Virus record (IMG/VR): IMGVR_UViG_3300043178_000179
Length of the DNA stretch: 64,000 nt
Reading direction: 5' to 3' (one strand)
Source of the DNA: a virus
Taxonomy: Duplodnaviria > Heunggongvirae > Uroviricota > Caudoviricetes
The notes beneath the pieces are model-generated. The model ran no database searches, was not told the DNA's origin, and saw only the letters and a program-made list of their open reading frames with translations. Below are positions 45,042 to 63,162 of this stretch, in pieces. Each line of letters begins with the position of its first letter. Positions within the stretch are counted from its first letter, which is position 1. The position numbers and the translations under genes were made by a program.

Positions 45042-45042
45042 T

Positions 45043-45120: not shown

Positions 45121-45121
45121 T

Positions 45122-45194: not shown

Positions 45195-45246
45195 CCTTCA
45201 TTCGAGAGGAGGTTCGATGCACCCCAAACGCATCCCTGTGAGCTGC

Positions 45247-45393: not shown

Positions 45394-45440
45394 CCTGGAG
45401 GACACCATGTTCCGTCGACAACGACGCCTCGATTCGTCGC

Positions 45441-45510
45441 CGGGGCGTCCGCGGGAAGCGGCAGCCGGCCCTTGAAGCCGGTCAACTCGGTTCGATTCCG
45501 AGCGCCCCCG
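45441..45510 (+). tRNA. atypical tRNA-like (TTG anticodon, Gln-like) with C1-C72 mismatch and C33
   Basis: Anticodon hairpin ccggc-ccTTGaa-gccgg. T-arm ctcgg-ttcgatt-ccgag. Compact D-arm. Possibly a pseudogene. Confidence 0.35.
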
Positions 45511-45514
45511 CCTC

Positions 45515-45587
45515 CGCAGCGTAGCTCGGCTGGTAGAGCACCCGGCTCATACCCGGGCGGGCGTGGGTTCGAGTCCCACCGCTGCGA
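45515..45587 (+). tRNA. tRNA-Met (CAT), elongator or Ile2-type
   Basis: Acceptor CGCAGCG/CGCTGCG. Loop ctCATac. Lacks initiator features. Confidence 0.75.
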
Positions 45588-45590
45588 CTT

Positions 45591-45668
45591 CGGGCTGTGG
45601 CGAAGCCTGGTCATCGCGCCGGTCTGGGGGACCGGAGATCGCCGGTTCAAGTCCGGCCAGCCCGACCA
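45591..45668 (+). tRNA. tRNA-Pro (GGG), CCA encoded
   Basis: C1-G72 acceptor CGGGCTG/CAGCCCG. Loop ctGGGgg. Confidence 0.8.
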
Positions 45669-45672
45669 TCGT

Positions 45673-45747
45673 GCTCCCGTCGTCTAGCCCGGTCAGGACG
45701 GCGGCCCCTCAAGCCGCAAACGCAGGGTTCAACTCCCTCCGGGAGCA
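45673..45747 (+). tRNA. tRNA-Glu (CTC)
   Basis: Acceptor GCTCCCG/CGGGAGC. Glu-type 3-bp D-stem (t-cgtc-tag...gac). Loop ccCTCaa with C33. Confidence 0.7.
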
Positions 45748-45758
45748 CTTACCTTCCT

Positions 45759-45831
45759 GGATCCCAAGCTCAAGTGGTCGAGCGCGCGACTGTTAATCGC
45801 GTGGTGCTGGGTTCGAGTCCCAGGGGATCCG
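45759..45831 (+). tRNA. tRNA-Asn (GTT)
   Basis: Perfect acceptor GGATCCC/GGGATCC. Loop ctGTTaa. Confidence 0.85.
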
Positions 45832-45838
45832 CCTCCTT

Positions 45839-45913
45839 CCGGTCGCAGCTCGATGGTGGAGCATCCGCCTGATACGCGGGAGGCTGCTGGTTCAAGTCCA
45901 GCCGACCGGACCA
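45839..45913 (+). tRNA. tRNA-Ile (GAT), CCA encoded
   Basis: Acceptor CCGGTCG/CGACCGG. Loop ctGATac. Confidence 0.8.
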
Positions 45914-45917
45914 TCGC

Positions 45918-45991
45918 TGACCCTTAGCTCAACTGGCAGCAGCGCCCGGCTCTGGACCGGGAGGTTCCAGGTTCGACTCCTGGAGGGTCAA
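45918..45991 (+). tRNA. tRNA-Gln (CTG)
   Basis: U1-A72 acceptor TGACCCT/AGGGTCA. Loop ctCTGga. Confidence 0.75.
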
Positions 45992-45995
45992 CTTC

Positions 45996-46067
45996 GACGA
46001 CGTGGCCGAGAGGTGAGGCAACGGTCTGCAAAGCCGTTCGACGCCGGTTCGACTCCGGCCGTCGTCT
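45996..46067 (+). tRNA. tRNA-Cys (GCA), U73
   Basis: Acceptor GACGACG/CGTCGTC. Loop ctGCAaa. Discriminator U. Confidence 0.8.
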
Positions 46068-46126
46068 CTTGGGGCCGGCCCGTGGCCCCTGGGCGTGCCG
46101 ATGCCCAAGTCCGGTCGCGCTTGGCA

Positions 46127-46218
46127 GCTCTTCGGAGCACCGGGACTGCCGTCCCGGGTTGCGCTTGGCGCGGGCAGCTCTTCGGAGCGCCGGGACTGCC
46201 GTCCCGGGTGGACGACGC
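46127..46218 (+). repeat. tandem ~45-nt repeat, each unit carrying two hairpins (gctc-TTCG-gagc and cccggga-ctgccg-tcccggg)
   Basis: 'gcgcttggc[...]agctcttcggagc(a/g)ccgggactgccgtcccgggt' occurs twice back to back between tRNA-Cys and tRNA-Pro. Confidence 0.6.
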
Positions 46219-46305
46219 GGGAAGCCGCAGCTCGAAGCGACGCTGGCACCGTCGCCGACGGCACCGCAATCGCGGCCAGGGGAGGTAGACGGTAGCCTTC
46301 CCATC

Positions 46306-46379
46306 TCGGGGTGTAGCTCAGCCTGGAAGAGCGGCGGTTTCGGGAGCCGCAGGCCGTGGGTTCGAGTCCCGCCACCCCG
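46306..46379 (+). tRNA. tRNA-Pro (CGG)
   Basis: C1-G72 acceptor CGGGGTG/CACCCCG. Loop ttCGGga. Confidence 0.8.
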
Positions 46380-46813
46380 ACTTCGATCGCTTCCGAGTGC
46401 CCGCCTCGGAATCCGGATTCAGGGCGGCTGGATCGCCGCGGGCTGGTGGAGGGCAACCGCTGCCCCCAGTGCCTTGGGCATCCAGCGCCCTCGGCACACC
46501 CCTCTGGGGATGAAACGGTCTCGACGGGGTACGCAGGCTCGAATCGGCGTCGCAGGCGAGGAGCGGCCTTGACAGCCCACACGGCAAACTGCCAACAACA
46601 ACAACCACTTCGAGGCCCGCGCCGCGGCGTAGGCTTCGAGGTCCAGGGGCTTCGAGCCCCTGGCGTTCGGGGAGGAAGCTGGCCGAGCTTCCCTGGGCGC
46701 ATCCCAGGCCCGGCAGGTCCACTGGTGAACGCGACTCGACCGGTGGATCGGAGTGCATCGAGCGCTGACTGCCCGGGAAAGACGGGCGACACCCGCCGCT
46801 GGGTCACGCGGCA

Positions 46814-46874
46814 GGCGACGTAGCTGGTGACGGTGAGCGTGTTCCGGACGCGGGTTCGACTCCCGCCATCTCCA
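46814..46874 (+). pseudogene. truncated or degenerate tRNA (Gly-TCC-like anticodon hairpin, no variable region, 2 acceptor mismatches)
   Basis: D-arm plus hairpin gcgt-gTTCCgg-acgc, abutting the T-arm gcggg-ttcgact-cccgc. Confidence 0.3.
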
Positions 46875-46878
46875 CTTT

Positions 46879-46952
46879 GCGGCTGAGACCTCGAAGGTGA
46901 GGGCCCGCCTTGCCAGGGCGGGATGGGACGGGTTCGACTCCCGCCAGCCGCT
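46879..46952 (+). tRNA. tRNA-Gly (GCC), U73
   Basis: Acceptor GCGGCTG/CAGCCGC. 6-bp anticodon stem. Loop ttGCCag. Irregular D region. Confidence 0.6.
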
Positions 46953-47022
46953 CCTCGACGTGATCCCTGATCCTCCTTTGTGTCCAGAACCGATCGTGTG
47001 TCCAATCCAGGGGTCGCGTCCT

Positions 47023-47095
47023 GCCCTCGTAGCTCAGCCGGAAGAGCGCCGGTTTCGTAAACCGGAGGTCCGGGGTTCGATGCCCCGCGGGGGCT
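47023..47095 (+). tRNA. tRNA-Thr (CGT)
   Basis: Acceptor GCCCTCG/CGGGGGC. Loop ttCGTaa. Confidence 0.8.
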
Positions 47096-47100
47096 CCTTG

Positions 47101-47172
47101 GCCCGGGTAGCTCAGTGGTGGAGCACCGCCTTGGTAAGGCGGCGGCCATGGGTTCAAGTCCCATCCCGGGCT
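47101..47172 (+). tRNA. tRNA-Thr (GGT)
   Basis: Perfect acceptor GCCCGGG/CCCGGGC. Loop ttGGTaa. Confidence 0.8.
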
Positions 47173-47339
47173 CCTCGTCACCGGCCGGTCTCCGGCCGTC
47201 GCTGACGTTGGGACGAGCGGTGGCCAGTCCCCGCCGGAACCACGCCCGTTCGCGCGGGCGCCGGCGGAAGACCCTGGGCCATCCGAAAGGCTGGCTATAA
47301 ACCGGCTCGACCGGAGCAAACAGGGTTCCACCGCACTTC

Positions 47340-47411
47340 GCGGCCATGGCCGAGAGGTCAGGCACCGCGTTCCCAGCGCGGACGACGCGGGTTCGAGTCC
47401 CGCTGGCCGCT
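47340..47411 (+). tRNA. tRNA-Gly (CCC), U73
   Basis: Acceptor GCGGCCA/TGGCCGC. Loop ttCCCag. Confidence 0.7.
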
Positions 47412-47541
47412 CTTCGAGGAAGCGCAGCGGACGAGGCTTTGGCCCGGCCCGCGACCGTTTCACCGCGGGAGGGCGTTCGCCCGGACCACGGCGCGGTGTT
47501 GGGCCGGGGTGGGTAGCGAGCGGCTGACCAGCTTCCTCTTC

Positions 47542-47614
47542 GCAGGCGAGAGGCCAACGGTGGCCGCCTGGCCTTCCAAGCCGGGACGGACGGGTTCGAT
47601 CCCCGTCGCCTGCT
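47542..47614 (+). tRNA. tRNA-Gly (TCC), U73
   Basis: Acceptor GCAGGCG/CGCCTGC. Loop ctTCCaa. Confidence 0.7.
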
Positions 47615-47618
47615 CCTT

Positions 47619-47691
47619 GCCCGCAGGAGTGCGACTGGCAGCATGCTGGCCTTGTAAGCCGGCCGTCCCGGTTCGAGTCCGGGTGCGGGCT
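47619..47691 (+). tRNA. tRNA-Thr (TGT)
   Basis: Acceptor GCCCGCA/TGCGGGC. Loop ctTGTaa. Irregular D-arm. Confidence 0.65.
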
Positions 47692-47696
47692 TTCGG

Positions 47697-47772
47697 CGGC
47701 GCGTAGCTCAGGTGGGAGAGCACCAGCTCGACAAGCTGGGGGTCGCAGGTTCGAGCCCTGCCGCGCCGACCA
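47697..47772 (+). tRNA. tRNA-Val (GAC), CCA encoded
   Basis: Acceptor CGGCGCG/CGCGCCG. Loop tcGACaa with C33. Confidence 0.7.
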
Positions 47773-47915
47773 TCGACTGCACGGACACTCCTACACAAGT
47801 CCTCCGGATGCCCTGTCCGTGCGCCGCTGCGGGCGGTTTCGTTGGGGCGACAGGGGCTCAGGCTGGCCGGCGGGCCGAAGCACGCGCCTGGTAGAAGGCG
47901 CGTGGCGCCGGCAAC

Positions 47916-47988
47916 GGGGACGTAGCTCAGTTGGGAGAGCGCGGCGTTCGCAACGCCGAGGCCACGGGTTCGACTCCCGTCGTCTCCA
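47916..47988 (+). tRNA. tRNA-Ala (CGC) with the G3-U70 identity pair
   Basis: Acceptor GGGGACG/CGTCTCC. Loop ttCGCaa. Confidence 0.85.
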
Positions 47989-47992
47989 CCTT

Positions 47993-48065
47993 GGGGTCGT
48001 AGCTCACCTGGGAGAGCGCCAGAATGGCATTCTGGAGGTAGAGGGTTCGAGTCCCTTCGACTCCA
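47993..48065 (+). tRNA. tRNA-Ala (GGC) with the G3-U70 identity pair
   Basis: Acceptor GGGGTCG/CGACTCC. Loop atGGCat. Confidence 0.85.
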
Positions 48066-48067
48066 CT

Positions 48068-49336
48068 TCACCTCGGGCAGGCGAGCCCGGTGCTGGGCGC
48101 GTCCCAGCGCTCGTACTCCTTGGCGAGCACGTCCTCGATCCCGGCTCTCGGGTTCTCGGCTCGCCAGGCGGCGACCTGTTCGCGGATCGGGACGAAGCCG
48201 TAGGCGACGTTCTTGTCCTCGAACACGGTGATCGGTCGGCCCTCGCGCTTCCACCGGGCCACGACGGGGTTCCAGGTCCCGGTCCTCCGGAGCTTGGCGA
48301 CGCGCTTCTCGGGGAAGAGCGCCATCTGCGCGCCCCGCAGCGCGACGGCCTCGGCCTCCCACCGTTCGACCTCGCGGAAGAAGGCCGGCTCGATGACCGA
48401 CAGCGCCCAGTACCAGGACACGTCTTGGTACTTGCACATCATGCAGCCGGACTTCTGGACCCCGGAGAAGCCGCCGGCCGCGAGGATGCTCGGCTCGTCG
48501 AAGTGGGTGAGCCCGATCTGCCGCGCGGCCTTCTTCCGGGCCGCGGCGATCCGGTCTCGGTCGACCTTGGGGAGGCCGTCCAGGTCCTCGCGCTTGGTGA
48601 CCCCCATCTCGACGAGCGGGTAGGCGTCGCCCTCCCAGGCGAAGCGGCCCTTCTGGCTCGGCTCCAGCCGCAGCGCGCGCCGGGCCTCGTCGGCCGCGAT
48701 GCCGAGCAGCACGAGGTGGGACCGCCGGCGTCCCGCGAGCACGAACCGGTTCCACTCGGCGGTTCCGACGCCGAACCGTTCTCGACTCAGGTCGTCCATG
48801 AGTTCGCGGCCTGGCTCGACCTTGTGGTTCATGGTGCAGTCGGCCGGCTTCTTGAGGATGATCATGCGCCGGCTGGCGTAGTCGTCGAGGATCGGCGGTC
48901 GCCGGTGGTAGTAGCCCCGCGCGGCGCGGGCCTCGATGCTCTTCGGCGGGTCGCGCCGCCAGGGCGGGGTCAGCACGGGCAGGCGTTGCCCGGGCCGGGC
49001 CTCGCGCATCCGGCCGAGCTCGCGCAGCCAGGCGATCCACCCGTCGGGGCCCTTGGCCGGGGGCTTGCGCTGGACGATGAACCGCAGTCCGTGCCGGCTG
49101 GTGAGCTTCTCGATCCTCGGGATCAGGTCGTAGGTCGCGGGCCACTCGGCGCCGGGATCGGTGAACACGACGGCGTCCACGTCGCCCGGCCGGATGGTCT
49201 CGCCGTCCGCGATCAGTCCGGGCCCGACGAGCAGCAGCAGCATGGTGATGCTGTCGCGGCCCAGGCCGAGTCGGAGCACGACGAGGCGGTCCTTCTTCGC
49301 GCCCTTCGCGGCGTCGAGCAGCGCGTCGAGGTCCAT
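48068..49336 (-). CDS. PAPS reductase-like PP-loop family protein (third, divergent paralog) carrying the N-terminal DLDALL motif; lies inside the tRNA array
   Basis: 'MDLDALLDAAKGAKKDR' then 'LVVLRLGLGRDSITMLLLL' (degenerate PP-loop). 'GCMMCKY'. Confidence 0.5.
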   Translation of the reverse strand: MDLDALLDAAKGAKKDRLVVLRLGLGRDSITMLLLLVGPGLIADGETIRPGDVDAVVFTDPGAEWPATYDLIPRIEKLTSRHGLRFIVQRKPPAKGPDGWIAWLRELGRMREARPGQRLPVLTPPWRRDPPKSIEARAARGYYHRRPPILDDYASRRMIILKKPADCTMNHKVEPGRELMDDLSRERFGVGTAEWNRFVLAGRRRSHLVLLGIAADEARRALRLEPSQKGRFAWEGDAYPLVEMGVTKREDLDGLPKVDRDRIAAARKKAARQIGLTHFDEPSILAAGGFSGVQKSGCMMCKYQDVSWYWALSVIEPAFFREVERWEAEAVALRGAQMALFPEKRVAKLRRTGTWNPVVARWKREGRPITVFEDKNVAYGFVPIREQVAAWRAENPRAGIEDVLAKEYERWDAPSTGLACPR

Positions 49337-49394
49337 GGCCTCAAGCGTAGCCCGGCTTGACCTCCGCCGGCCACGGAACTACGTCGCGGTCGTG

Positions 49395-49607
49395 AGCGAG
49401 CCTCCGACCCCCGAGCGCATCGTGGCCGCGATCGAGTCCTGGCAGGCGGACCCTTACGTCCACCCGCTGACTTGCGGCTGGGACTCGCAGAACCACCGGC
49501 CGCTGCGGCCCCGCCGCGACGGGGACCAGGTGGTGCTGGTCTGCGAGGACTGCGACTACGTCCAGCGCTGGGTTCCGGCCGTGGTGCTGGGCCGCACGGG
49601 AGCGTAG
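49395..49607 (+). CDS. small Cys-containing protein
   Basis: GTG start. 'LTCGWDS...LVCEDCDYV'. The 3' end overlaps tRNA-Ala by 10 nt. Weak call. Confidence 0.25.
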   Translation, partial: SEPPTPERIVAAIESWQADPYVHPLTCGWDSQNHRPLRPRRDGDQVVLVCEDCDYVQRWVPAVVLGRTGA

Positions 49608-49670
49608 CTCAGTTGGGAGAGCATCGGCTTTGCAAGCCGGGGGTCGCGGGTTCGAGTCCCGCCGCTTCCA
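49598..49670 (+). tRNA. tRNA-Ala (TGC) with the G3-U70 identity pair
   Basis: Acceptor GGGAGCG/CGCTTCC. Loop ttTGCaa. Confidence 0.85.
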
Positions 49671-49677
49671 CCTTTCG

Positions 49678-49761
49678 AGCAGGGGTGCAGCATCGGTTCC
49701 GCTGGGAGGGCTCATAACCCTCCGGCTTCGGCCCAACCGGGTTCGACTCCCGGCCCTGCGT
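49678..49761 (+). tRNA. atypical class-II-like tRNA: CAU anticodon plus a 14-nt variable arm, A1-G72 mismatch
   Basis: D-stem cagc/gctg. Anticodon hairpin gaggg-ctCATaa-ccctc. Variable hairpin cggc-ttcg-gccc. T-arm ccggg-ttcgact-cccgg. Confidence 0.4.
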
Positions 49762-49769
49762 CCTTCTTT

Positions 49770-49841
49770 GCCCGCGTAGCCGACTGGGAAGGCGGCGGTC
49801 CTACAAACCGCTTCATGCAGGTTCGATTCCTGTCGCGGGTA
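49770..49841 (+). tRNA. tRNA-Val (TAC)
   Basis: Acceptor GCCCGCG/CGCGGGT. Loop ccTACaa. Confidence 0.8.
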
Positions 49842-49848
49842 CTTCGTC

Positions 49849-49923
49849 GCTGCCGAAGACGAAGCGGTCCAGTCACTGGTCTTTCAAGCCCGTCATTAGC
49901 GGGTTCGAGTCCCGCCGGCAGCA
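49849..49923 (+). tRNA. tRNA-Glu (TTC)
   Basis: Perfect acceptor GCTGCCG/CGGCAGC. 3-bp D-stem. Loop ctTTCaa. One U-C mismatch in the anticodon stem. Confidence 0.6.
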
Positions 49924-49930
49924 CCTTCAC

Positions 49931-50003
49931 GCGCCCGTAGCTCAGCTGGAAGAGCACCGACCTTCTACGTCGAGAGTCGTGGGTTCGATTCCCTCCGGGC
50001 GTA
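49931..50003 (+). tRNA. tRNA-Arg (TCT)
   Basis: Acceptor GCGCCCG/CGGGCGT. Loop ctTCTac. Confidence 0.7.
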
Positions 50004-50004
50004 C

Positions 50005-50078
50005 GTCCCCGAAGCTCAATGGAGGAGCGCCGGTTTCCTAAACCGGGCCAGTTGCGGGTTCGAGTCCCGCCGGGGACA
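50005..50078 (+). tRNA. tRNA-Arg (CCT)
   Basis: Perfect acceptor GTCCCCG/CGGGGAC. Loop ttCCTaa. Confidence 0.75.
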
Positions 50079-50123
50079 CCTTTCGTCCTGTCCGACAGCC
50101 ACGTTTGCGATTATGGATCGGTC

Positions 50124-50738
50124 ATGGAGACCACCGTACTGGTCCTGGACGCGGCGTACCAGCCGCTCAAGGTCGTCCCCTGGCAGAGGGCGATCGAGCT
50201 GATCGTCTCGCAGAAGGCGAACCTCGTCCAGGAGTACGCCGGCCGCGTCGTGCGGTCCGCGAAGCTGACCCTGCCGCTCCCGGCGGTGGTCGTGCTCCGC
50301 CGGTACGTCCGGCTCCGCAACCGGGTGAAGTTCAACCGCCGGAACGTGCTCGCGCGCGACGCGCACCGCTGCGGCTACTGCGGGACCCGTCCGCTCCGTC
50401 GCGACGGAAAGGTGGACCTGGCCGAGCTGACGATCGACCACGTCGTCCCCCGGGCGCAGGCTCGGGACGGCCGGGTACGGCTGCCCGGGGGCCGCGAGGT
50501 CCCGGTGACCTGCTGGGAGAACGTGGCGACGGCGTGCATCCCCTGCAACATGAAGAAGGCGGACCGTCGGCCCGACCAGGTCGGGATGACGCTCCGCCTG
50601 ACGCCCCGGAAGCCGAACGAGCTGGACATCCTGCGCATGGCGCTTTCCCGGGTGCAGGTCCCCGAGGAGTGGAAGGACTACCTGCCCAAGGACTCCTCCT
50701 GGGTGGACTACTGGGACGTCCAGCTCGACGCAGACTGA
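50124..50738 (+). CDS. HNH endonuclease
   Basis: 'RDAHRCGYCG...LTIDHVVPRAQ...WENVATACIPCNMKKADR' (CxxC...H-N-H...CxxC). Confidence 0.7.
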   Translation: METTVLVLDAAYQPLKVVPWQRAIELIVSQKANLVQEYAGRVVRSAKLTLPLPAVVVLRRYVRLRNRVKFNRRNVLARDAHRCGYCGTRPLRRDGKVDLAELTIDHVVPRAQARDGRVRLPGGREVPVTCWENVATACIPCNMKKADRRPDQVGMTLRLTPRKPNELDILRMALSRVQVPEEWKDYLPKDSSWVDYWDVQLDAD

Positions 50739-50751
50739 CCAAGGAGAGGAC

Positions 50752-51168
50752 ATGATCGCCAGCTTCACCGGCACCCGGAAAGGCATGACGCCCGAGCAGC
50801 GTGAAGCCTTCCGAGACTTGCTCCGGACGCAGGGTGTGGAGACGCTTGTCCACGGAGACTGCGTGGGCGCGGACGAGGACGCGGACCGCATCGCCAGCAC
50901 GCTCGGCGTCGCCCGGAACATCCGGCCCTGCAACGTCCGCGACATGCGAGCCCGCTGCGACCTTCGCGGAGCGCGCCCCGTGGAGGGGGAGCGTCCCCCG
51001 TTGGAGCGCAACCGCGACGTCGTCAACGACGGTGCCTGCCTCATCGCGTGCCCCTCCGGCTTCAAGGAGGAGCGGCGCTCAGGGACGTGGGCGACGGTGC
51101 GATACGCCCGTTCCATCCACCGGGACCTCTACATCATCTGGCCCGATGGGCGTGCGGAGCACGGGTGA
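50752..51168 (+). CDS. phage SLOG-family protein (DUF2493/YspA-like)
   Basis: 'IASFTGTRKGMTPEQ...LVHGDCVGADEDAD...ACPSG'. Size fits. Confidence 0.4.
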   Translation: MIASFTGTRKGMTPEQREAFRDLLRTQGVETLVHGDCVGADEDADRIASTLGVARNIRPCNVRDMRARCDLRGARPVEGERPPLERNRDVVNDGACLIACPSGFKEERRSGTWATVRYARSIHRDLYIIWPDGRAEHG

Positions 51169-51181
51169 CCCTGCGGGCTCA

Positions 51182-51448
51182 GTGAGGCCGTGTCGGGCCA
51201 AGGGGTGCGCTGAGGCGCCGGAGTCGGGCCTGTTCTGCCGCCCGCACTGGATGACGCTGCATCCGACGACCCGCGACTCACTCAGGACCGCGCTGGTCTT
51301 CTACGACGCGCACCGCGAGGACACGGCCCTCGCGCGGAGGTTTCTTCTCGCCATCGACACGGCGGTGGCCGAGTTGGCGCTCCGCGAAGGGGACTGGATG
51401 GTCGAGGACGCCCTGGAATGGCTGGGCTCTCGTGCGCCGCCGCGGTAG
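51182..51448 (+). CDS. small Cys/His protein
   Basis: GTG start. 'CRAKGCAEAPESGLFCRPHW'. Confidence 0.35.
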   Translation: MRPCRAKGCAEAPESGLFCRPHWMTLHPTTRDSLRTALVFYDAHREDTALARRFLLAIDTAVAELALREGDWMVEDALEWLGSRAPPR

Positions 51449-51457
51449 AGTCCAACC

Positions 51458-52300
51458 GTGGAAGGTGTCCCGCTCGCGCTGGTGCTGAGTTCGCTGCTGG
51501 CGGCCCCCGTCGTGCTGCGTCCCCGCGGGTCCGGAGACCGTCGTCCCCACCCCCAGGTCGCCGCCGTGATGGCCCCGCATCCCGACGCCGCGGCGTTGCT
51601 CGGCTACCTCGCGAGGCCCTCGCTCGTGGGCTGGCAACAGGTCCGAAACATGGTGATCCCCCGGTCGGGAGAGCTTGGTCCGCCGTTCGGTGGGCCCACG
51701 GTCTGGCAGGCGGTGGTCGAGTACGGCTGGTCCCAGGCCGGAGGCGGCGAGTCCGCGGCGCCCTGGAACTGGGAGGACCCGCGGGCCTACCCCGACCGGC
51801 TGGGTCTCCATCCGCCGCCCGTCGTCGTCGAGAAGGCGATCCTGTCCGCGCTGGGGCGGCCGTACCTCGGGGAGGTCGAGTCGGAAGCGCCGCTCCGGCA
51901 GCGGGCAGCGCCCGCGAGGCCGGCGCCCCGGACGCTTCCGGGTCCGGCCATCCCGCTCTACTACGGCGAGAACCGTCAGCAGCGGTTCTGGCAGGGGGCA
52001 CCGGTCGAGATCGGGCTCCGGGTGTTGCTCTTCGAGCACAAGCGCGAGCCGGGATACTGGACGGTGATCACGCAGGCCCGCGGCGAGAGCCCGCGGGTGT
52101 TGACCCGTCGCCGGAGCGGCCGGACGACGGAGACCGTCTCCGCTGGCGGCCCAACGGCCGCCGCCGCGCTGCGGGATGTCGCGCGGCATCACGCCTTGAA
52201 GCTCACGCTCTCGCAGGACTACCACTGGGGGCTCCGCCGCGGTAAGGTGGCGCTGGTGGCCGGCCCCTGGCGCGGCGAGATCCTGGAGCCCGAGCGATGA
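51458..52300 (+). CDS. hypothetical protein
   Basis: GTG start, 280 aa. Confidence 0.45.
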   Translation: MEGVPLALVLSSLLAAPVVLRPRGSGDRRPHPQVAAVMAPHPDAAALLGYLARPSLVGWQQVRNMVIPRSGELGPPFGGPTVWQAVVEYGWSQAGGGESAAPWNWEDPRAYPDRLGLHPPPVVVEKAILSALGRPYLGEVESEAPLRQRAAPARPAPRTLPGPAIPLYYGENRQQRFWQGAPVEIGLRVLLFEHKREPGYWTVITQARGESPRVLTRRRSGRTTETVSAGGPTAAAALRDVARHHALKLTLSQDYHWGLRRGKVALVAGPWRGEILEPER

Positions 52301-52845
52301 AGGACGGAGCGGTACTGGCGATCGGCGCGGCCGCGCTTGCGGCCGCCGGCGCCGCGCTCGCGCGGTCGTCCGGAAGCCGTGCCGCGCTCGCCGGTCGGGT
52401 GGTCCACCGGTTCCCGGACGGCTGGACGGTCCAGGACCTCTTCAACCCGATCAACCCGATCCTGCTGATCTCGGAGGGCCAGGCGCTCCAGAACACGGTC
52501 CTGCACCCGATCTGGTTCGAGGGGATGTTGCGGGGGAAGTGGCGGGTCCAGAGCCTGCGTCGCCCGGACGGCGAGTCCATGCTGACGCTGATCGTGACCA
52601 AGGACAACCGGGTCGGGGTGGCCCGCGGCCACTGGGACCGCCTGCCCGGCAGCTTCGTTCCCGGGTTCACGGACACGCCCACGACCGTCCGCGAGGAGCT
52701 GACCGAGAAGTTGACCGAGGAGCTTCTCCAGACGGAGTGTGAGCACCTCGTCGCCTACGTTCGCACGATCCAGCCAACCGGCCCGCTGCGCGCGGACGTC
52801 CGCGCCTGCATGGAACGGCTCGGCATCGAGGAAGAGGAGGACTGA
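52297..52845 (+). CDS. paralog family member (short): N-terminal A/L/G-rich segment plus the conserved 'RFPDGWTVQ...SLRRP...GHWDR' C-terminal domain
   Basis: ATGA-coupled. The domain is shared with the 52849 and 55457 genes. Confidence 0.5.
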   Translation: MKDGAVLAIGAAALAAAGAALARSSGSRAALAGRVVHRFPDGWTVQDLFNPINPILLISEGQALQNTVLHPIWFEGMLRGKWRVQSLRRPDGESMLTLIVTKDNRVGVARGHWDRLPGSFVPGFTDTPTTVREELTEKLTEELLQTECEHLVAYVRTIQPTGPLRADVRACMERLGIEEEED

Positions 52846-52848
52846 GAG

Positions 52849-54000
52849 ATGGCCGTTCGTAGTGGTGCAGCGGTCGCGCTCGGCGCGGTGGCCGCGATGG
52901 CGGCGGTCGCGGCCGTGGGTTCCCGTCGCGGGTCGTTCCAGCAGGTCACGCCGTTCATCCAGGCGCTGCTGCGGATCCGCAACGAGTACGGGGCCGACCC
53001 CGAGGTGGTCATCCGAGCGCAGGACTTCGTGCTCCGGGCCTCGATCGAGGGCGTCCAGGTCCTCGCGGGCACGGACGGCCCGACCTCGATGCTGGAGGAC
53101 GAGGCGACGAACATCCCCGGCCCGGGGGGTCTGCTCGGCTACATGGACTTCCAGGCCGGGCTGTTGCGTGCCGGCCGCTACTACGTCGACACGGTGAGCC
53201 GCGCGTTGCCGACGCACGAGTCCAGGTACCAGCGGTTCATCCCCTGGATCGCCCGCGAGGTCGCCCGGATGGTCCGAGCGGAGCGCGCGAAGCGCTCGAA
53301 GGACCAGCAGAGCCTGATCGCGGACCTCGCGGCTTTCAACCGGGAGCTCCCCCGGATCGCGGACTACGCCGGGACCGCGCGGCCGAACCTCCTCCAGATG
53401 ACCTGGCCGCAGGCGAAGGAAGCCTCGGACCGGTGGCACACCGAGATGCAGGAGGTCCTGCGCCAGCGGGCGGAGAAGGCGAAGCTCAAGGCGCTCAAGC
53501 AGGGCGGCCGGGTGATCCACCGCTTCCCGAACGGCTGGACGATCCAGGAACTCTACACCAAGGCCCACCTCGACGTCGAGGGCGACTACATGCACCACTG
53601 CGTCGGGAGTTCGACGCACTACTGGAACGAGGTGCAGCGCGGGAACTACAAGATTGTGAGCCTCCGGCGTCCCACGGGCGAGTCGATGCTCACGATCACG
53701 GTGCAGCTCCCCGGGAACACGATCCTCTACGCGCTGGGGCACTTCGACCGGGCGGCCGGCACCCGCGAGCGGGTGGAGTCCTACGCCCCGGGCATCGCGA
53801 AGATGCTGACGGACGAGATGCTCCTGGACGAGTGCCGCGCGCTGTTGGAGTACCAGCAGATGCTGACGCCCGGTGCTCAGCCCACGGGGCACCTGGCTCG
53901 CTGCGCCGAACGGGTGCACGCGGCCGAGGAGAAGGCTCGGCGCCAGCTCGCGGCCCGCCAAGGCGGCCCCCAGGGTCGTCATCAGGGCCGTCGTCGGTGA
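52849..54000 (+). CDS. paralog family member (long form) with the 'RFPNGWTIQ...HHCVG...SLRRP...GHFDR' domain
   Basis: N-terminus 'MAVRSGAAVALGAVAAMAAVAAVGSRRGS'. The N-terminal region also parallels the 55457 gene. Confidence 0.5.
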   Translation: MAVRSGAAVALGAVAAMAAVAAVGSRRGSFQQVTPFIQALLRIRNEYGADPEVVIRAQDFVLRASIEGVQVLAGTDGPTSMLEDEATNIPGPGGLLGYMDFQAGLLRAGRYYVDTVSRALPTHESRYQRFIPWIAREVARMVRAERAKRSKDQQSLIADLAAFNRELPRIADYAGTARPNLLQMTWPQAKEASDRWHTEMQEVLRQRAEKAKLKALKQGGRVIHRFPNGWTIQELYTKAHLDVEGDYMHHCVGSSTHYWNEVQRGNYKIVSLRRPTGESMLTITVQLPGNTILYALGHFDRAAGTRERVESYAPGIAKMLTDEMLLDECRALLEYQQMLTPGAQPTGHLARCAERVHAAEEKARRQLAARQGGPQGRHQGRRR

Positions 54001-55460
54001 TCGCGTCCTCGCTGGCGCTCGGCGCGGCCGCGGCGCTCGCCATGGCCGGATCGGCCGCCGCCCGCAGGATCTGGTCCCGCGAGGACGCGGTGCGCTTGCG
54101 CCGGCGGTTCGATGCTGGCGAGACGACCGCCCAGATCGCCGCGGCGGAGGGCGTCACGCTCCAGGCCGTGGCCGACCTGTGGCGCCGGCACCGCCTGTCC
54201 GGTCACGTTCGCGGCCGGCGTCGGGTCTACACCGACGAGCAGGCGGCCGCGTGGCGTCGGATGTACCTCGACGGCATGAGTTGGGCCGAGGTCGGCGCGA
54301 CGGTGGGCTTGTCGGCCAACGTCGTCCGCAAGCGGGTCGAGCGGTGGGAGTCCCGCCGCTGGCCTTCCGGGTCGATGGCCCGCTTCGACTACGGCACCGC
54401 CGATCGCCTGCTGGGCGCCCGGGCATCGAAGCGGCTGTCCGGCCGGGAGACCCGGCTGGAGCGGGACGGGAACGACATTCGGGTGGTCTACCACCGCACG
54501 CCCGTGGTGACGCTTCACCCGGACGGGACCTACACGCTCCGCGCCAACGGCTGGGAGACCCTCAGCACCTTGCAGCGGTTCCACGACTACTCCCCGGCGC
54601 GAGTCTTCGGGCGTGGCAGGCCGATCGACACCTTCTACATCGCGCACCGGAGCGACCCGTTCCACGAGCGCTTCTTCGACGGTGCCCGCGTGGACGCCTC
54701 GGGCGTGCTGCTCAACCCCCGAGAACCCGTCCGCCGGATCGGGTCGACCAATGGCCGGCCCTTCGCGTTTGCCGCCGGCGATCTGCTGGTCGGTGATCAA
54801 GGCGGTGGCATCCCGGTCTTCCTGGAGGTTCTCGCTGTCAAGCCCAGGGCGGTCCTCGCCAGGAGGTATGGCTTCAAGATGACCCTCCAGGGGGAGGACG
54901 GCGAGCCCGTGTTCGTGATGGACCGCGCGAAGTCCATGGGTGAGCTGGACTACCTCCTGGAGCCGGACGGCTCGCTGTTCGGCGTCCAGCGCCTGCGGCG
55001 CTCCGGAGGTCGAGTCCCGCAGGGAAGCCTCAACCCGAGGGATCTCGGCAGTCCGGCCCGCAAGCGGGGCCTCACCTCGTCCGAGGTCGCGGCCGCGTGG
55101 GCCGGATCCCGTTTCGGCGTGTCCAAGACGGGGGACTACTGGACCGACGGCGAGACGCTCTGGTCCTACAAGCTCACGATCGGGCAGACCATCGACGGCC
55201 GGAAGATCGTCTGGGACTATCGCGCCTCTCCCCATCGCCGCTCGGTGAGCCTGACGACCTCGCGGCACGTCGACCGGGCCGCCGCGGTCGCGGACGAGGT
55301 CTGGCCGCCCGAGGGCGTCGCGCGCCTCGATCGCCCGCGGATCGGTCCGCCGGACCGCCCTCCTCCGCGGCACGAGCTGCGTCCGCCCCGCCCCGGCTCC
55401 ATCTGGCGGCCCATCGATCCCGTCACGGGCCGGGTCTGGCGCCCGCGGGGCCGCCTGTGA
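53997..55460 (+). CDS. hypothetical protein with HTH motifs and a hydrophobic N-terminus
   Basis: GTGA-coupled. 'TTAQIAAAEGVTLQAVADLWRRH' and 'MSWAEVGATVGLSANVVRKRVERW'. Confidence 0.5.
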   Translation: MIASSLALGAAAALAMAGSAAARRIWSREDAVRLRRRFDAGETTAQIAAAEGVTLQAVADLWRRHRLSGHVRGRRRVYTDEQAAAWRRMYLDGMSWAEVGATVGLSANVVRKRVERWESRRWPSGSMARFDYGTADRLLGARASKRLSGRETRLERDGNDIRVVYHRTPVVTLHPDGTYTLRANGWETLSTLQRFHDYSPARVFGRGRPIDTFYIAHRSDPFHERFFDGARVDASGVLLNPREPVRRIGSTNGRPFAFAAGDLLVGDQGGGIPVFLEVLAVKPRAVLARRYGFKMTLQGEDGEPVFVMDRAKSMGELDYLLEPDGSLFGVQRLRRSGGRVPQGSLNPRDLGSPARKRGLTSSEVAAAWAGSRFGVSKTGDYWTDGETLWSYKLTIGQTIDGRKIVWDYRASPHRRSVSLTTSRHVDRAAAVADEVWPPEGVARLDRPRIGPPDRPPPRHELRPPRPGSIWRPIDPVTGRVWRPRGRL

Positions 55461-56599
55461 ACGGGACGTCCCTCGCCATCGGTCTCGCGGCGGTCGTCGC
55501 GCTGCCTTCGGTCCTCCGCCGTGGCGGTTCCCTCGCGCGCTCCGGCTTGCAGGAGCAGTTGTTGCGCCTCAAGAACCAGTGGAAGGCCGATCCCGAGGTG
55601 GCGATCCGGGCGCAGGACCTCGTGCTGACGATCCTCCCCGGCGATCCGGTCGGTCCGGCCGGGCTGCCGGGCCTGTGGGAGACCAACGCGCAGCTCCTGT
55701 ACGACGTTCGCAAGCTCGGCGGCCACGGCCTGGACGACTACCTGGCGCTGGTAAGCCGGCAGATCGCGGCCAACGAGCACTTCTCGAAGCGCCTGTTGTC
55801 GGTCGACATCGCCTGGCAGCGGTACATCCCCTGGATCGGCCGCGAGGTGGGTCGCCTGATCCGGGCGTCCCGCCGGAACGAGATCCCGGTGCGGCAGCCT
55901 CGCTGGGGCTCGTCCGAGTCGCAGGAGTCCGCGCTGTTGCGCGAGATGCAGTCCCTGCGGAACCAGTTGCCCCGGGTCCTGGACTGGGCGATGGCGACCG
56001 GGCCGGACCTGATGACGCTGCGGTTCAAGCAGGCGAAGGCCAGGTCCGACCGTTGGCACGCGCAGGGCGCAGGCGGTGAGGGGCTCACGGTCGCCCGAGG
56101 GGTGCCGCTGCCCGGCGAGGTCGTCTACCGCTTCGCCGACGGTTGGACGGTGCAGCGCCTGGGGAGCTTTCGCCACCTCCAGTCCGAGGGCCAGGTGCTC
56201 CACCACTGTGTCGGTCGGGGGACCTACTACTGGGACGGTGTCGTCTCCGGGAAGTGGACCATCGAGTCGCTCCGCGATCCGAAGGGGAAGCCCTACGTGA
56301 CGCTGACGGTTCTGCCAAACGGCCGGATCATCTACGCGAAGGGGCACTTCGACCGTTTGGCCGGCGAGCGCATGGAGCGGCGCTACGCTCCGTCCACCTA
56401 CGACAAGCTGACCGACGAGGCGCTCGACCTGGAGTGCCTGCGCCTCGACGAGTACCAGCGCTTCCGGGATCCGCCCCCCGGGGATGTCGCGAGCGACCTC
56501 GTCACCTGCGCGCGTCGCCTGGAGCTGATCCAGGCCCGCGCCGCCGCGCAGGCTCAGGCCAAGGCCCGTGCCCAGGGCCAGGGGCGTTCCACGGGATGA
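55457..56599 (+). CDS. paralog family member (long form) with the 'RFADGWTVQ...HHCVG...SLRDP...GHFDR' domain
   Basis: GTGA-coupled. N-terminus 'VNGTSLAIGLAAVVALPSVLRRGGS'. Confidence 0.5.
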   Translation: MNGTSLAIGLAAVVALPSVLRRGGSLARSGLQEQLLRLKNQWKADPEVAIRAQDLVLTILPGDPVGPAGLPGLWETNAQLLYDVRKLGGHGLDDYLALVSRQIAANEHFSKRLLSVDIAWQRYIPWIGREVGRLIRASRRNEIPVRQPRWGSSESQESALLREMQSLRNQLPRVLDWAMATGPDLMTLRFKQAKARSDRWHAQGAGGEGLTVARGVPLPGEVVYRFADGWTVQRLGSFRHLQSEGQVLHHCVGRGTYYWDGVVSGKWTIESLRDPKGKPYVTLTVLPNGRIIYAKGHFDRLAGERMERRYAPSTYDKLTDEALDLECLRLDEYQRFRDPPPGDVASDLVTCARRLELIQARAAAQAQAKARAQGQGRSTG

Positions 56600-57186
56600 T
56601 CGCGCTCCGGCCGCTGCCCTGGTCCGCCGACGCGCTGGAAGGGTGGCTCTCGGCGCGGACGGTCGCGGCGCACCACGGGCAGCACGAGGCGGGGTACGTC
56701 CAGGCGCTGAACCGGATGACGGCCGCGGCGCCGGGTCTTCGCAATCTTCCCGTCGAGCGGCTGATGCTCGGGCGGACCGATGCCCGCCCGATCGCCGCAC
56801 AGGTCTACAACCACCGCTTCTACTGGGAAGGGCTCGCGCCGACTGCCACGCCCTCGCCGCCGCCGCCCGGTCCGCTCCAAGCGGAGATCGAGCGGACGTT
56901 CGGGTCTCTCGGTCGGCTCCGTGGCCGGTTCCTCTTCCTCGCGAACGCGGTCCTGGGATCGGGATGGTGCTGGCTCACCTGGAACGGCCGGGCGCTCGTC
57001 GTCGAGGTGACGAAGGACGCGGACAACCCCGTGCAGGCGGGCCGAGTACCGCTGTTGGCCTGCGACGTGTGGGAGCACGCCTACTACCTCGACTACGAGA
57101 GCCGCCGCGGCGACTACCTCAAGGGGTTCTGGAACGCGGTCGCCTGGGACGTCGTCGCGCTGCGTCTCCGCCTCGCGCGCCTCTGA
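56596..57186 (+). CDS. Fe/Mn superoxide dismutase
   Basis: 'AAHHGQHEAGYVQALN' (HHxxHHxxYV) and 'DVWEHAYYLDYESRRGDYLKGFWNAVAWDVV' (SOD C-terminal signature). ATGA-coupled. Confidence 0.85.
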   Translation: MIALRPLPWSADALEGWLSARTVAAHHGQHEAGYVQALNRMTAAAPGLRNLPVERLMLGRTDARPIAAQVYNHRFYWEGLAPTATPSPPPPGPLQAEIERTFGSLGRLRGRFLFLANAVLGSGWCWLTWNGRALVVEVTKDADNPVQAGRVPLLACDVWEHAYYLDYESRRGDYLKGFWNAVAWDVVALRLRLARL

Positions 57187-57202
57187 GCCGGTCCGTCCCG
57201 CG

Positions 57203-58411
57203 GTGCGCCCGGGTTATCCTAACGAGGCCGTGGCCAGAGCGCTCCGACATCGTCGCGGTTCCCGCGCATCGCCGCCGACGCTGACCCGCGACGGCTTCCC
57301 CTGGCCGCCCGGGGTGGACCTGTACCACGCCACGACCGGGCTCCGTGCGATCCGCCGCGAGGGTTTCAGGACCCGCCGCGAGCTGGGTGCCGCCGCGCTG
57401 GGCGGCGGGCCGTCGACGGCCGTGAGCCTGACGATCGACTTCCGGGTGGCCGCGAGCATCGCGCTCGGCCTCCGGGTGCTCTCGCTGGGGGCGCGGCGCG
57501 ATCTGTCGCTCCGGGACCTGCTCGACTTCGCCGCGGTCGAGACGCCGAAGGCATTGCGCGCAATCCAGGCCGGGGCCAAGAGGGACTACGGTCTCGACGA
57601 CGAGACGATCGCGAGGCTGGACGACGGTTGGGTGCTGGAGCGGACGCCCGGGATGCTGAGCGGTCGTCGGCTGCCTCCCGGCGCGCTCCCAGGCCAGCCC
57701 TACTTCATGGGTCGCCGGGACGTCTCGGGTCATCCATTGGAGTACGTCTCCTGGTGGATCCGCGGCCCGGCTGCCACCGAGGAGTGGGCGGTCCGCTCCT
57801 GGCAGGGGAACGAGCCCTTCTACAACCTCTACCAGCTCATCCTGGCCCACGGTGAAGGCGAGAAGGAGTGCTTCAACCCGCTCTTCTTCGGCACGGACCT
57901 GGCGTCGCTCGGGCGCGTGTCGGCCGACGACATCGGTGTGCTCGCGGTCCAGGCGGACATCCCGCGGGTCTGTCCGGACGTGCCCGGGACGGTGGGGCTC
58001 GGGTATCTCGATGAGCGCCTGGCCCGCTACTGGGCGGGGTGGTTGAACGACACGTTCGGCTACGACTGTCCGCAGGACCTCTCGTGCCTCGCCGAGCACG
58101 GGAAGCCGTTCCGCTCCACGCGGCGCAGCATCCTGGACTACCCAGGTCCGGCGAAGCCGGAGATCGGCCCGTGGCGGGTCCTGGACGAGGGCGAGCGTCG
58201 GCCGCAGGATACGATGGCCTACCTCAGCTCGCTCGCGGAGTTCCGGGTGTACGACCCGCGCCGGATCCGTGTGCTGGAGGCCACGTCGATCCTGGAGTTG
58301 CAGCGCAGCTCCCGCTGGGGCGGTCGCGCGACCTACCCGTACTTCCGGCCGGGCGAGGACCTCGTCGGCCTCCGCCCGGGCACCCGGGTGCTGGCCGGGG
58401 CTGTCGCGTGA
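57203..58411 (+). CDS. hypothetical protein
   Basis: 402 aa, protein-like. Confidence 0.45.
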   Translation: MRPGYPNEAVARALRHRRGSRASPPTLTRDGFPWPPGVDLYHATTGLRAIRREGFRTRRELGAAALGGGPSTAVSLTIDFRVAASIALGLRVLSLGARRDLSLRDLLDFAAVETPKALRAIQAGAKRDYGLDDETIARLDDGWVLERTPGMLSGRRLPPGALPGQPYFMGRRDVSGHPLEYVSWWIRGPAATEEWAVRSWQGNEPFYNLYQLILAHGEGEKECFNPLFFGTDLASLGRVSADDIGVLAVQADIPRVCPDVPGTVGLGYLDERLARYWAGWLNDTFGYDCPQDLSCLAEHGKPFRSTRRSILDYPGPAKPEIGPWRVLDEGERRPQDTMAYLSSLAEFRVYDPRRIRVLEATSILELQRSSRWGGRATYPYFRPGEDLVGLRPGTRVLAGAVA

Positions 58412-61202: not shown

Positions 61203-62335
61203 CCGGCCTCGCGCTGGCTCTTGCGCCGGCCGCGATCCTCGCGGTCGCCGGGGTCCGTGGCAGCCGCGCCACGGCCAGGGCGCTGCGCGCCATGGCGCGC
61301 CGCACGCTCGCGAGCGGGATCTGTGGGGAGAAGCCGGAGTTCTTCCACGTCACCGTGGCCCGGTCGATGCCGGGCATCGTCGCGCACGGGCTGGTGCCAC
61401 CGGCCGAGCGCGGCGAGATCGTCTCGACCTTCGGTGAACGACTCGCACCGTGGGTCGCGGACAAGGTCTTCCTCACGGTCGGGGAAGAAGGGATCTCCAT
61501 CTGGGAGGACAACTGGCTCGTCTCCGACTCGGATCTCTCCATCGACGACCTCGTCGTGCTCCGGGTGCGGCCGGAGGCCGGGATCGAGAGGTTCGTCCGC
61601 GTGGACGAGAAGGCCAGGTCCGACGTGGGCGACGACTGCGCCTTCTACGTCAAGCGCCGGATCCCGCCCGAGCACCTCGACTTCTTCGACCGGAACAGGT
61701 TGGGCTGGCACCCGCTGAGCGGCTGGGCGGCGCGTCGCGCGTCGCCCTCCGGCGGCCGAAACGTAGTCGCGCCGAGCGGCTATCACCGGACGGCGCTGGC
61801 CCGCCGCGGCGCGAGCGTGCCGTTGCGGGTGGTCCAGGAGCGGTTTCCGGAGTGGCTGGGCGGCTCGGTGTTGGACTACGGGGCCGGTCGCGGGGCCGAC
61901 TGCAAGGTGTTGTCGCGGCGCGGTCGCGCAGCCTGCTACGACCCGCACCATCCGGATCCGAAGATGCGACGCCGCCCGGCCGGCACCTTCGGGATCGTGA
62001 TGCTCAGCTACGTGCTGAACGTGTTGCCGCCGAAGCCCCGCGCGCAGGCGCTACGGGAGGCCGCGCGCCATGTCGCGGTTTCGGGCCACCTCGTCGTCGC
62101 GGTCCGCGGGAAGGACGAGTCGGCCTGGGCGCAGGTGCGATCCAGTTGGTCGAAGTGCGAGGACGGCTACGTCCAGCGCGACGCGGCCGGGAGCGTCGAG
62201 AGGTTCCAGCGGTTCTTCACGCCGGCCGAGCTGCGCGCGTACTGCCGGCGGGTGCTGGGCGCCGCCTTCGTGGAGGAGCCGGGCCTGGTCGCGCCGTCCG
62301 GCACGGCGATGATGGCGCTCCGGAGGGTCCGCTGA
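61199..62335 (+). CDS. class I SAM-dependent methyltransferase domain protein (C-terminal) with a hydrophobic N-terminus
   Basis: 'VLDYGAGRGADCKVLSRRG' motif I. N-terminus 'VTGLALALAPAAILAVAGVRGS'. Confidence 0.5.
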   Translation: MTGLALALAPAAILAVAGVRGSRATARALRAMARRTLASGICGEKPEFFHVTVARSMPGIVAHGLVPPAERGEIVSTFGERLAPWVADKVFLTVGEEGISIWEDNWLVSDSDLSIDDLVVLRVRPEAGIERFVRVDEKARSDVGDDCAFYVKRRIPPEHLDFFDRNRLGWHPLSGWAARRASPSGGRNVVAPSGYHRTALARRGASVPLRVVQERFPEWLGGSVLDYGAGRGADCKVLSRRGRAACYDPHHPDPKMRRRPAGTFGIVMLSYVLNVLPPKPRAQALREAARHVAVSGHLVVAVRGKDESAWAQVRSSWSKCEDGYVQRDAAGSVERFQRFFTPAELRAYCRRVLGAAFVEEPGLVAPSGTAMMALRRVR

Positions 62336-63162
62336 TGCCGAAGCGGGTCGCCGGCAAGCTCTACGTCCATCGCACGGCCGTGCACACCTTGCCGCTGTGG
62401 GCCCAATCGGCGATCTCCCGCGCGCTCCCGCTGTTGCCGGCCGGCTTCCGGTGGACGCTGGTGCGGGTCGCCCCCGGCGAGGTCATGTTCGGTCGGACGA
62501 TGCCGTTTTCGCGGCCGCACCCGGAGCTGCTGGAGCGGATCCTCGTTCGCCGCGGCCGGGTCGTGGACCGCAGGTGGTATCGCGGGAACGGGCCCATCTA
62601 CCACCGGATCGAGCAGATGCTGGCGCCTGGGAGCAAGCACCGCGCCGAGGCGGAGCGTCGGACGCGACAGGAAGAGGCGCTCGGGTTGCTGGGTCGTCCC
62701 GACATCGGGACCGCGAGGGCCTGGCGCCGCGCCGGTGGCAGCATGGCCCGTGCTCCCTGGTTGTCCTGGCCATCGGTCACGGCCGGGGAGGTCTGGGCGC
62801 ACGTCGAAGCGGCCTGTCCGCACCGGGGTGGCCCTCGGGACGCGCGCCAGGCGATGGTCCCGCTGGAGAACTACGAGTGGTACGGCCCCGGCTCGATCGA
62901 CGTCCACCACCCGATGTTCCGGCGGCTCGAACCCGCGAGCGACCGCGACGTGCGCCGATACGCCAAGGCGATGCGCGCCGGTCGTGTGCCTCCCGCGGTC
63001 GTGCTGGTTGTCGACAACGACGGACAGAACGAGGAGCGGTTTTTCGTCGAGGACGGCGCCTCATGGCCCGGGGCCTGGTCCGTCGCGAACTGCGCCGGAC
63101 CGACGACCGGACCCGTCGCTCCTGGTTCTATTCCGCACCCATCGGCCATCCGGATTAGGATG
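62335..63162 (+). CDS. hypothetical protein (no in-frame stop before the next candidate start)
   Basis: ATG overlaps the upstream TGA. Frame 1 stays open to the end of the window, so this ORF is absent from the supplied ORF track. Confidence 0.35.

Follow-up and report, generated by a model that had tools for sequence, protein, structure and literature searches.

Three PcfJ-like paralogs with a shared hydrophobic leader in one operon of a 64-kb viral sequence

The viral DNA analysed here is a stretch of 64,000 nucleotides (IMG/VR record IMGVR_UViG_3300043178_000179, Caudoviricetes), and "the window" means the whole of this stretch. It carries three nearby plus-strand genes whose products of 182, 383 and 380 amino acids (aa), designated P1, P2 and P3, share a domain that an earlier note on this DNA had described as unrecognised. 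Against that description, the domain matches the catalogued PcfJ-like family, Pfam PF14284, with P2 and P3 above the gathering cut-off, and membership of all three proteins in this family is nearly certain. The domain is thus catalogued but uncharacterised, because a Pfam entry exists without a functional study or a sequence-related structure. As a whole, we picture a coupled operon of three membrane-tethered PcfJ paralogs with a GNAT-like fold, which would act in takeover or establishment with P1 as a non-catalytic member, and we regard this complete picture as evenly poised between right and wrong. The parts of it differ in strength and are discussed below.

Membership in the PcfJ-like family

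The earlier note had listed three paralogs of the above lengths, and this was borne out: the open reading frames (ORFs) are present on the plus strand, and BLASTP aligned P2 with P3 at 200 bits (E 1.4e-63, 37% identity over ~355 aa) and P1 with P3 and P2 at 87 and 86 bits, respectively, both about 1e-23. The similarity is far above chance, and by this comparison the three are real paralogs. Exactly three copies, namely P1, P2 and P3, were found in the window by a six-frame scan with family hidden Markov models (HMMs). Three N-terminal blocks that had been described as common to P2 and P3, DPEVxIRAQDxVL, YQRFIPWIAREV and QAKxxSDRWH, were also recovered in alignments. The QAKxxSDRWH block falls within the Pfam model, the other N-terminal blocks are conserved beyond the Pfam boundaries, and the helical N-terminal domain of P2 and P3 is conserved in the wider family.

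At a gathering cut-off of 25 bits, PF14284 matches P2 with 42.5 bits (E 7.6e-11) and P3 with 32.2 bits (E 1.1e-7), and P1 has no match in Pfam. P1 is detected at 52 bits (E 1.6e-15) by a family HMM built from 195 family domains, which gives 95.5 bits for P3. A PcfJ match was found in 72 of the 77 aligned relatives. In Foldseek searches of BFVD, the best matches were phage proteins, mostly named PcfJ-like (E 2.4e-6 to 1e-4, probability 1.0). Searches of NCBIfam and PADLOC gave zero matches for the three paralogs, PHROGs returned function-unknown families only, and PDB sequence searches, including one with the domain profile, gave only noise and no sequence-related solved structure.

The family is named after PcfJ of the Enterococcus faecalis plasmid pCF10, and it occurs in phages, like the window paralogs, and also in conjugative plasmids. 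P2 and P3 share with it the motifs DGWT, EG..M.HCVG..Y, SLRD, T and Q.KG..N. Unlike typical PcfJ proteins, they form a divergent subfamily, with the replacements W173Y, D274R, P279S, E284T, Q294Y and N300D in P2, and this subfamily has three additions: a hydrophobic leader with RRGS at the N-terminus, a helical extension containing Cys at the C-terminus, and a basic tail. P1 differs further from the family, being without the His-Cys pair and under the Pfam threshold. A tblastn search with the P2 domain had no match among 50,697 records of phages and 72,556 of plasmids, and the same search with a typical PcfJ core found 12 phage and 56 plasmid records. Full-length P2 as a homologue query retrieved P2 only, and a 23-sequence full-length alignment retrieved two proteins; this poor retrieval probably comes from Ala-rich low-complexity words crowding the candidates. 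The domain-only alignment gave 49 short matches, and a first related-loci search of viral contigs gave nothing.

The wider family was collected by an exhaustive HMMER search with a P2+P3 profile against 1.84 billion cluster representatives (50% identity clustering), which yielded 2291 proteins at E <= 1e-3, of which 591 reached E <= 1e-10. About 20 matches have the P2/P3 architecture from end to end. Since 32 of the 149 top matches with a detected core hold two to four cores in one polypeptide, domain multiplication is, as judged from these sequences, a general theme of the family. Relatives reach 3507 aa. Among giant relatives examined with Pfam, four contained PcfJ alone and a fifth contained LRV/HEAT repeats, and two relatives on viral or metagenome-assembled genome contigs have C-terminal leucine-rich repeat (LRR)-like repeats. 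The combination of PcfJ with variable C-terminal repeat modules is consistent with an effector domain coupled to a targeting module. The two LRR-fused proteins (L003:7848-9140 and L006:7845-10460) have the H-to-N variant motif VQNCL, and their repeats read GYxHPLPxxLxxVGGxLxL.

Predicted fold and conserved residues

P2 is composed of the leader (aa 1-29, nt 52849-52935), a helical N-domain (aa 35-217, nt 52951-53499) and the PcfJ alpha/beta core (aa 218-306, nt 53500-53766), which is followed by C-terminal helices and the basic tail; the core of P3 lies at aa 218-305 (nt 56108-56371). AlphaFold2 with 23 aligned relatives gave a model of P2 with a mean pLDDT (predicted local distance difference test) of 87.7 and a pTM (predicted template modelling score) of 0.68. 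In this model, a low-confidence N-terminal helix at aa 6-24 precedes the helical domain at aa 35-217, strands are at 221-225, 231-234, 267-273, 279-286 and 291-296, and helices are at 238-248, 256-263, 322-339 and 348-371. When residues 160-383 were modelled with 77 sequences, these elements were unchanged, at pLDDT 92.8 and pTM 0.76. The predicted order in the core is strand-helix-helix-strand-strand-strand-helix, as in the GNAT acyl-CoA N-acyltransferase fold, and on these models the PcfJ core probably adopts a GNAT-like fold.

Conservation was scored over 195 family domains, with residue numbers of P2. S271 and R273 are kept in 100% of them, E244 and C251 in 98%, Y258 in 95%, and H250 and T282 in 88%, with Asn in place of H250 in ~10%. 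Further near-invariant positions of the core are G229, G265 and P279, and conservation extends to D172, W173, W196 and H197 upstream of the core and to Q294, G297 and N300 toward its end. The family-wide polar set of the core is thus Glu-x5-His-Cys, Tyr, Ser-x-Arg(-Asp), Thr and Gln-x-x-Gly-x-x-Asn. Both P2 and P3 hold E-x5-H-C, Y, S-x-R and T in full, and in P3 these stand in the motifs HHCVG, SLRD and T. The earlier note had spoken of invariant His, Cys and Asp residues; they are common to the three paralogs in GH[FW]DR and ECxxL, but they are specific to the subfamily and not family-wide. It had also ascribed HHCVG to all three proteins, and this does not hold for P1, which reads LQNTVLH there.

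The core of P1 spans ~aa 32-118 (nt 52390-52650). It retains E, S-x-R, T and GHWDR, and it has Asn for H250, Thr for C251 (QNT for HHC) and Trp for Y258. Because the His-Cys pair and Tyr258 are replaced, and Cys is absent from only 3 of the 195 family cores, P1 is probably non-catalytic.

The operon, its leader and the genomic context

The window is 71% GC along its whole length, and a third-position-GC gene finder called ~69 genes in tight succession, almost every one of them on the plus strand. The coding signature is clear for P1, P2 and P3, with third-position GC of 0.92-0.94, and two other contigs have public gene calls with the same lengths of 182, 383 and 380 aa. Composition and third-position GC mark the long antisense ORFs of this region (587, 463 and 527 aa) as GC artefacts, and they were rejected. 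The genes of the operon are as follows.

51458-52300, plus strand: upstream 280-aa protein, function unassigned, with an N-terminal hydrophobic leader and then RPRGS (third-position-GC gene call; the public gene call likewise gives 280 aa)
52297-52845, plus strand: P1, 182 aa, leader and PcfJ core only, with no helical N-domain
52849-54000, plus strand: P2, 383 aa, leader, helical N-domain, PcfJ alpha/beta core, C-terminal helices and basic tail
53997-55460, plus strand: interleaved 487-aa protein, leader and helix-turn-helix segments
55457-56599, plus strand: P3, 380 aa, GTG start, architecture as in P2
56596-57186, plus strand: Fe/Mn superoxide dismutase (Pfam Sod_Fe_C 4.3e-31, Sod_Fe_N 1.6e-11)

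These genes from 51458 to 57186 are one translationally coupled operon. At 52297 the stop of the 280-aa gene overlaps the start of P1 as ATGA, P1 and P2 are separated by a 3-nt gap at 52849, and the 487-aa gene overlaps P2 and P3 by 4 nt each, as GTGA at 53997 and 55457. The superoxide dismutase gene, which has an ATGA overlap with P3, is the last of the coupled run. A promoter and terminator scan gave no signal above shuffled background. The 280-aa protein had zero matches in Pfam, PHROG, NCBIfam and PADLOC. The 487-aa protein is not a PcfJ paralog; it gave sub-threshold matches to helix-turn-helix segments of the sigma-70 region 4 or GcrA-like type.

The leader common to these proteins is an Ala/Gly/Leu-rich hydrophobic helix of 17-20 residues, followed by Arg residues and Gly-Ser (RGS). 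It is found on at least eight window proteins, with starts at 12644, 51458, 52297, 52849, 53997, 55457, 61199 and 63160, and the one at 61199 is a methyltransferase. Beside the last of these, the 555-aa gene called by third-position GC at 62335-64000 is probably two, one at ~62335-63158 and a leader-bearing ORF from 63160 that runs off the window end. For the seven leaders analysed, Kyte-Doolittle hydropathy over 19 aa is 1.6-2.1, and the helix is flanked by a net charge of -1 to +1 on its N-terminal side and of +1 to +5 on its C-terminal side. The consensus is recognisable as the GDWLALGAxGALA type, for example RGDWLALGAVGALAAGG...KGS. In contigs with full-length homologs of P2 and P3, the leader is also on unrelated proteins, including an AcrVA2-like protein; such sites in related contigs are L020:1584 and 4925(-), L022:2534, 5251, 8401(-), 13771 and 16610, and L024:3025, 3549 and 7426. 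The leader was absent from the examined loci of other PcfJ subfamilies, and ~1/6 of the top 150 family matches have it.

In hydropathy and charge asymmetry the leader resembles signal-anchor helices (N-out/C-in), and its simplest reading, as judged from sequence, is that it anchors the protein in the membrane and leaves the C-terminal domain in the cytoplasm. It is far more conserved than a generic anchor (GDWLALGAxGALA...RGS). The internal proteins of phage T4 share a capsid-targeting sequence, which is, like the window leader, one short N-terminal module on many unrelated proteins of one phage, but the window leader is far more hydrophobic than that sequence. The leader is not known to match any described signal.

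The operon lies directly downstream of an HNH gene and a tRNA island with a transfer-messenger RNA (tmRNA) gene. According to ARAGORN, this island (33246-50080) contains 43 tRNA genes and the tmRNA gene, which is at 46506-46875 with the tag ANNNNHFEARAAA. It includes a suppressor-type tRNA with anticodon TTA (34276-34351), and there is an aberrant anticodon call at 42478-42563. Other genes of the window encode the HNH endonuclease, a protein with SLT and peptidoglycan-binding domains, a C5 DNA methylase, and proteins of the NUDIX and Band-7 types, and the majority of the window proteins are without family assignment. In a blastn search of 50001-58000 against phages, the superoxide dismutase gene alone was matched. 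The window genes recur on public metagenome contigs, the longest of 95 kb. Its packed plus-strand array, the tRNA and tmRNA genes and the HNH, SLT/peptidoglycan-binding and DNA methylase genes are phage-like, and the window is taken to come from the genome of a large high-GC phage that is uncultured.

Elsewhere, PcfJ genes are found in varied settings. On a Xylella plasmid its neighbours are topoisomerase III on one side and a 1858-aa helicase on the other, with TrbA and a primase nearby; on a Listeria plasmid it lies between type IV secretion system genes and those of MobP2 relaxase, TopB and ArdC; and on Pseudomonas plasmids it is near a DEAD-box helicase gene. Contigs with full-length P2/P3 homologs have RadC, AcrVA2-like and NUDIX genes nearby. 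Giant PcfJ relatives recall the polyvalent proteins of phages and conjugative elements, which were reportedly described by Iyer et al. in 2017: these are like the PcfJ relatives of 1,000-3,500 aa with several PcfJ domains and with ArdC, topoisomerase III and giant helicase neighbours. In contrast, the PcfJ proteins of the window are small, single-domain and putatively membrane-tethered, and the giant relatives tested also differ from polyvalent proteins in having no other effector domains in Pfam. Yersinia phage YerA41 encodes a 639-aa PcfJ-domain protein, YerA41_160, that bears the annotation label "structural protein", and 63 proteins associated with YerA41 particles have been identified by liquid chromatography-tandem mass spectrometry (PMC7354516).

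In one closely related contig, L020, a full-length PcfJ homolog is 2.4 kb upstream of a 24-tRNA array (5209-9989). The HNH gene after this array (10061-10630) is 45% identical to that of the window (50124-50738), and the two neighbourhoods are partly syntenic. Short PcfJ proteins in other large phage contigs adjoin genes for phenylalanyl-tRNA synthetase (PheRS)-like, CCA-adding and tRNA-ligase proteins.

Several other features of the window were recorded. A segmental duplication involves 5957-7494 and 28150-29503, in which the proteins encoded by 6286-7494 and 28313-29503 share 89% identity over ~300 aa. A 116-aa ORF (5957-6307) shares 81% identity with the C-terminus of the C5 DNA methylase encoded by 26655-28334. 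Repeats like DLDALLARA are at the N-terminus of five proteins, with starts at 16414, 16914, 17607, 19023 and 48068(-). Three PP-loop or PAPS-reductase-like proteins are encoded at 4999-5634, 14947-15921 and 48068-49336(-); the first two have the motif SGGKDS, and PHROG 424 matches the third. Such proteins may be linked to DNA or tRNA modification. A peptidoglycan-binding domain is common to the proteins at 153-2696 and 41025-41855(-), with 59% identity over 76 aa, and the larger one, at 153-2696, adds an SLT domain and a C-terminal hydrophobic segment.

Possible functions of the operon

In the mechanism that we favour, the hydrophobic helix would tether P1, P2 and P3 to the cytoplasmic face of the membrane, N-out and C-in. 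P2 and P3 would be active enzymes, carrying out transfer of an acyl or other group, or a thiol-dependent reaction. They would act on a host or nucleic-acid-associated target while the mobile element takes over or becomes established. P1, having lost His, Cys and Tyr, would be a non-catalytic partner or a decoy. For the leader as a membrane tether, the hydropathy and charge pattern tips the balance slightly in favour. The same slight preference applies to PcfJ as an enzyme rather than a binding module, and acyl transfer specifically is only a tentative suggestion.

Several observations weigh against this proposal. The resemblance to GNAT is at the fold level only, with Z < 8 and sequence identity of 4-19%; the core has no sequence-level relationship to the GNAT superfamily, and none of the 77 members matched a GNAT Pfam family even at E <= 1. 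The full GNAT topology is beta1-alpha1-alpha2-beta2-beta3-beta4-alpha3-beta5-alpha4-beta6. In both models DSSP shows no strands after the helix equivalent to alpha3, and therefore the beta5-alpha4-beta6 half, which completes the acetyl-CoA cleft, appears in the predictions to be missing or replaced by helices. GNAT motif A, Q/R-x-x-G-x-G/A, is loosely mirrored by Q-x-K-G-K-x-N in the family, Y-A-L-G-H-F-D in P2 and Y-A-K-G-H-F-D in P3, with the final G/A absent. The invariant residues of PcfJ are mainly in the alpha1-alpha2 region and on beta2-beta3, and these parts vary between GNATs. Because of the missing Pfam match, the lack of strands past alpha3 and the loose form of motif A, the core is termed GNAT-like here and is not filed as GNAT. 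In addition, up to four PcfJ domains occur in one polypeptide, which is commoner in binding modules than in enzymes. For a generic anchor, the sequence of the leader is too conserved, which suggests a more specific role, such as a co-assembly or sorting signal, instead. Lastly, full-text literature searches found no experiment or functional study of any PcfJ protein; PcfJ appears there in incidental mentions only, in plasmid annotations and as a target-gene domain of diversity-generating retroelements.

One alternative, which has an appreciable though minor chance of being right, is that PcfJ is a non-catalytic binding or scaffold module, and that the proteins are associated with the virion, or lie inside it and enter together with the DNA. 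The leader would then direct them to the capsid or mark them for processing, possibly by cleavage near RGS. This would agree with the label of YerA41_160, encoded by a phage with 63 particle-associated proteins, with a weak structural match to a PA5oct "structural protein" (E 0.014), with the two to four tandem PcfJ domains and sizes of up to 3507 aa, and with a conserved leader on unrelated proteins in one phage clade, which resembles the case of the T4 internal proteins. However, near-invariant Glu, His, Cys, Ser, Arg and Thr in 195 domains suggest chemistry or a specific ligand, the block in the window is among non-structural genes (HNH, superoxide dismutase, methyltransferase), and the strong hydrophobicity of the leader sets it apart from the T4 sequence.

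The location of the operon next to the tRNA island raises the idea that PcfJ is a GNAT-fold enzyme acting on tRNA or aminoacyl-tRNA in a phage translation-takeover module. Among 11 further PcfJ loci, tRNA adjacency held in one closely related contig only, and because of this the idea was demoted to a weak rival, which we consider unlikely. Most of the other loci examined have no tRNA gene within 8-10 kb of PcfJ, the plasmid contexts are DNA-transfer modules without translation genes, and the tRNA-array synteny comes from closely related phages and is essentially one observation. The candidates raised by the earlier note, a peptidase, ADP-ribosyltransferase or nuclease using the conserved His, Cys, Arg and Asp, are not supported. 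The conserved His-Cys, Glu, Arg and Asp/Asn are present, and an adjacent His-Cys with an acidic residue could in principle make a thiol-based active site, but no resemblance to the three classes was found in fold or profile, and we consider a thiol peptidase or either of the other two to be very unlikely. It is even less probable that the leader is a cleavable Sec signal peptide and that the periplasm or cell envelope is where the proteins act. The hydrophobic N-terminus and small residues before the basic stretch, such as ALA|R (P1) and AMA|G (the 487-aa protein), resemble such a signal, but there is no net positive charge before the helix, Arg comes directly after the hydrophobic core, and the cargoes (a helix-turn-helix protein, a methyltransferase and an AcrVA2-like protein) have typical cytoplasmic activities. 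The Sec signal peptide was rejected since this charge distribution, by the positive-inside rule, disfavours export of the C-terminal part.

For the earlier note the outcome is mostly deflationary in that the domain already had a name. Phages and conjugative plasmids commonly encode PcfJ-like proteins. The GNAT-like prediction together with E244, H250, C251, Y258, S271, R273 and T282 makes a hypothesis that can be tested by mutation, and two intact copies and one degenerate copy in one operon provide a built-in control. More speculatively, and with considerable doubt on our side, PcfJ may be a Cys/His/Glu-bearing offshoot of the GNAT fold that forms a new enzyme class, used by phages and conjugative plasmids at entry or establishment, with the unrelated leader-bearing proteins of this clade of large high-GC phages (PcfJ, the helix-turn-helix protein, the methyltransferase, the AcrVA2-like protein and others) addressed by an undescribed sorting, co-assembly or packaging system. 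If the leader is a real sorting signal, it would give a handle for tracing proteins with linked functions in this clade, which is unstudied.

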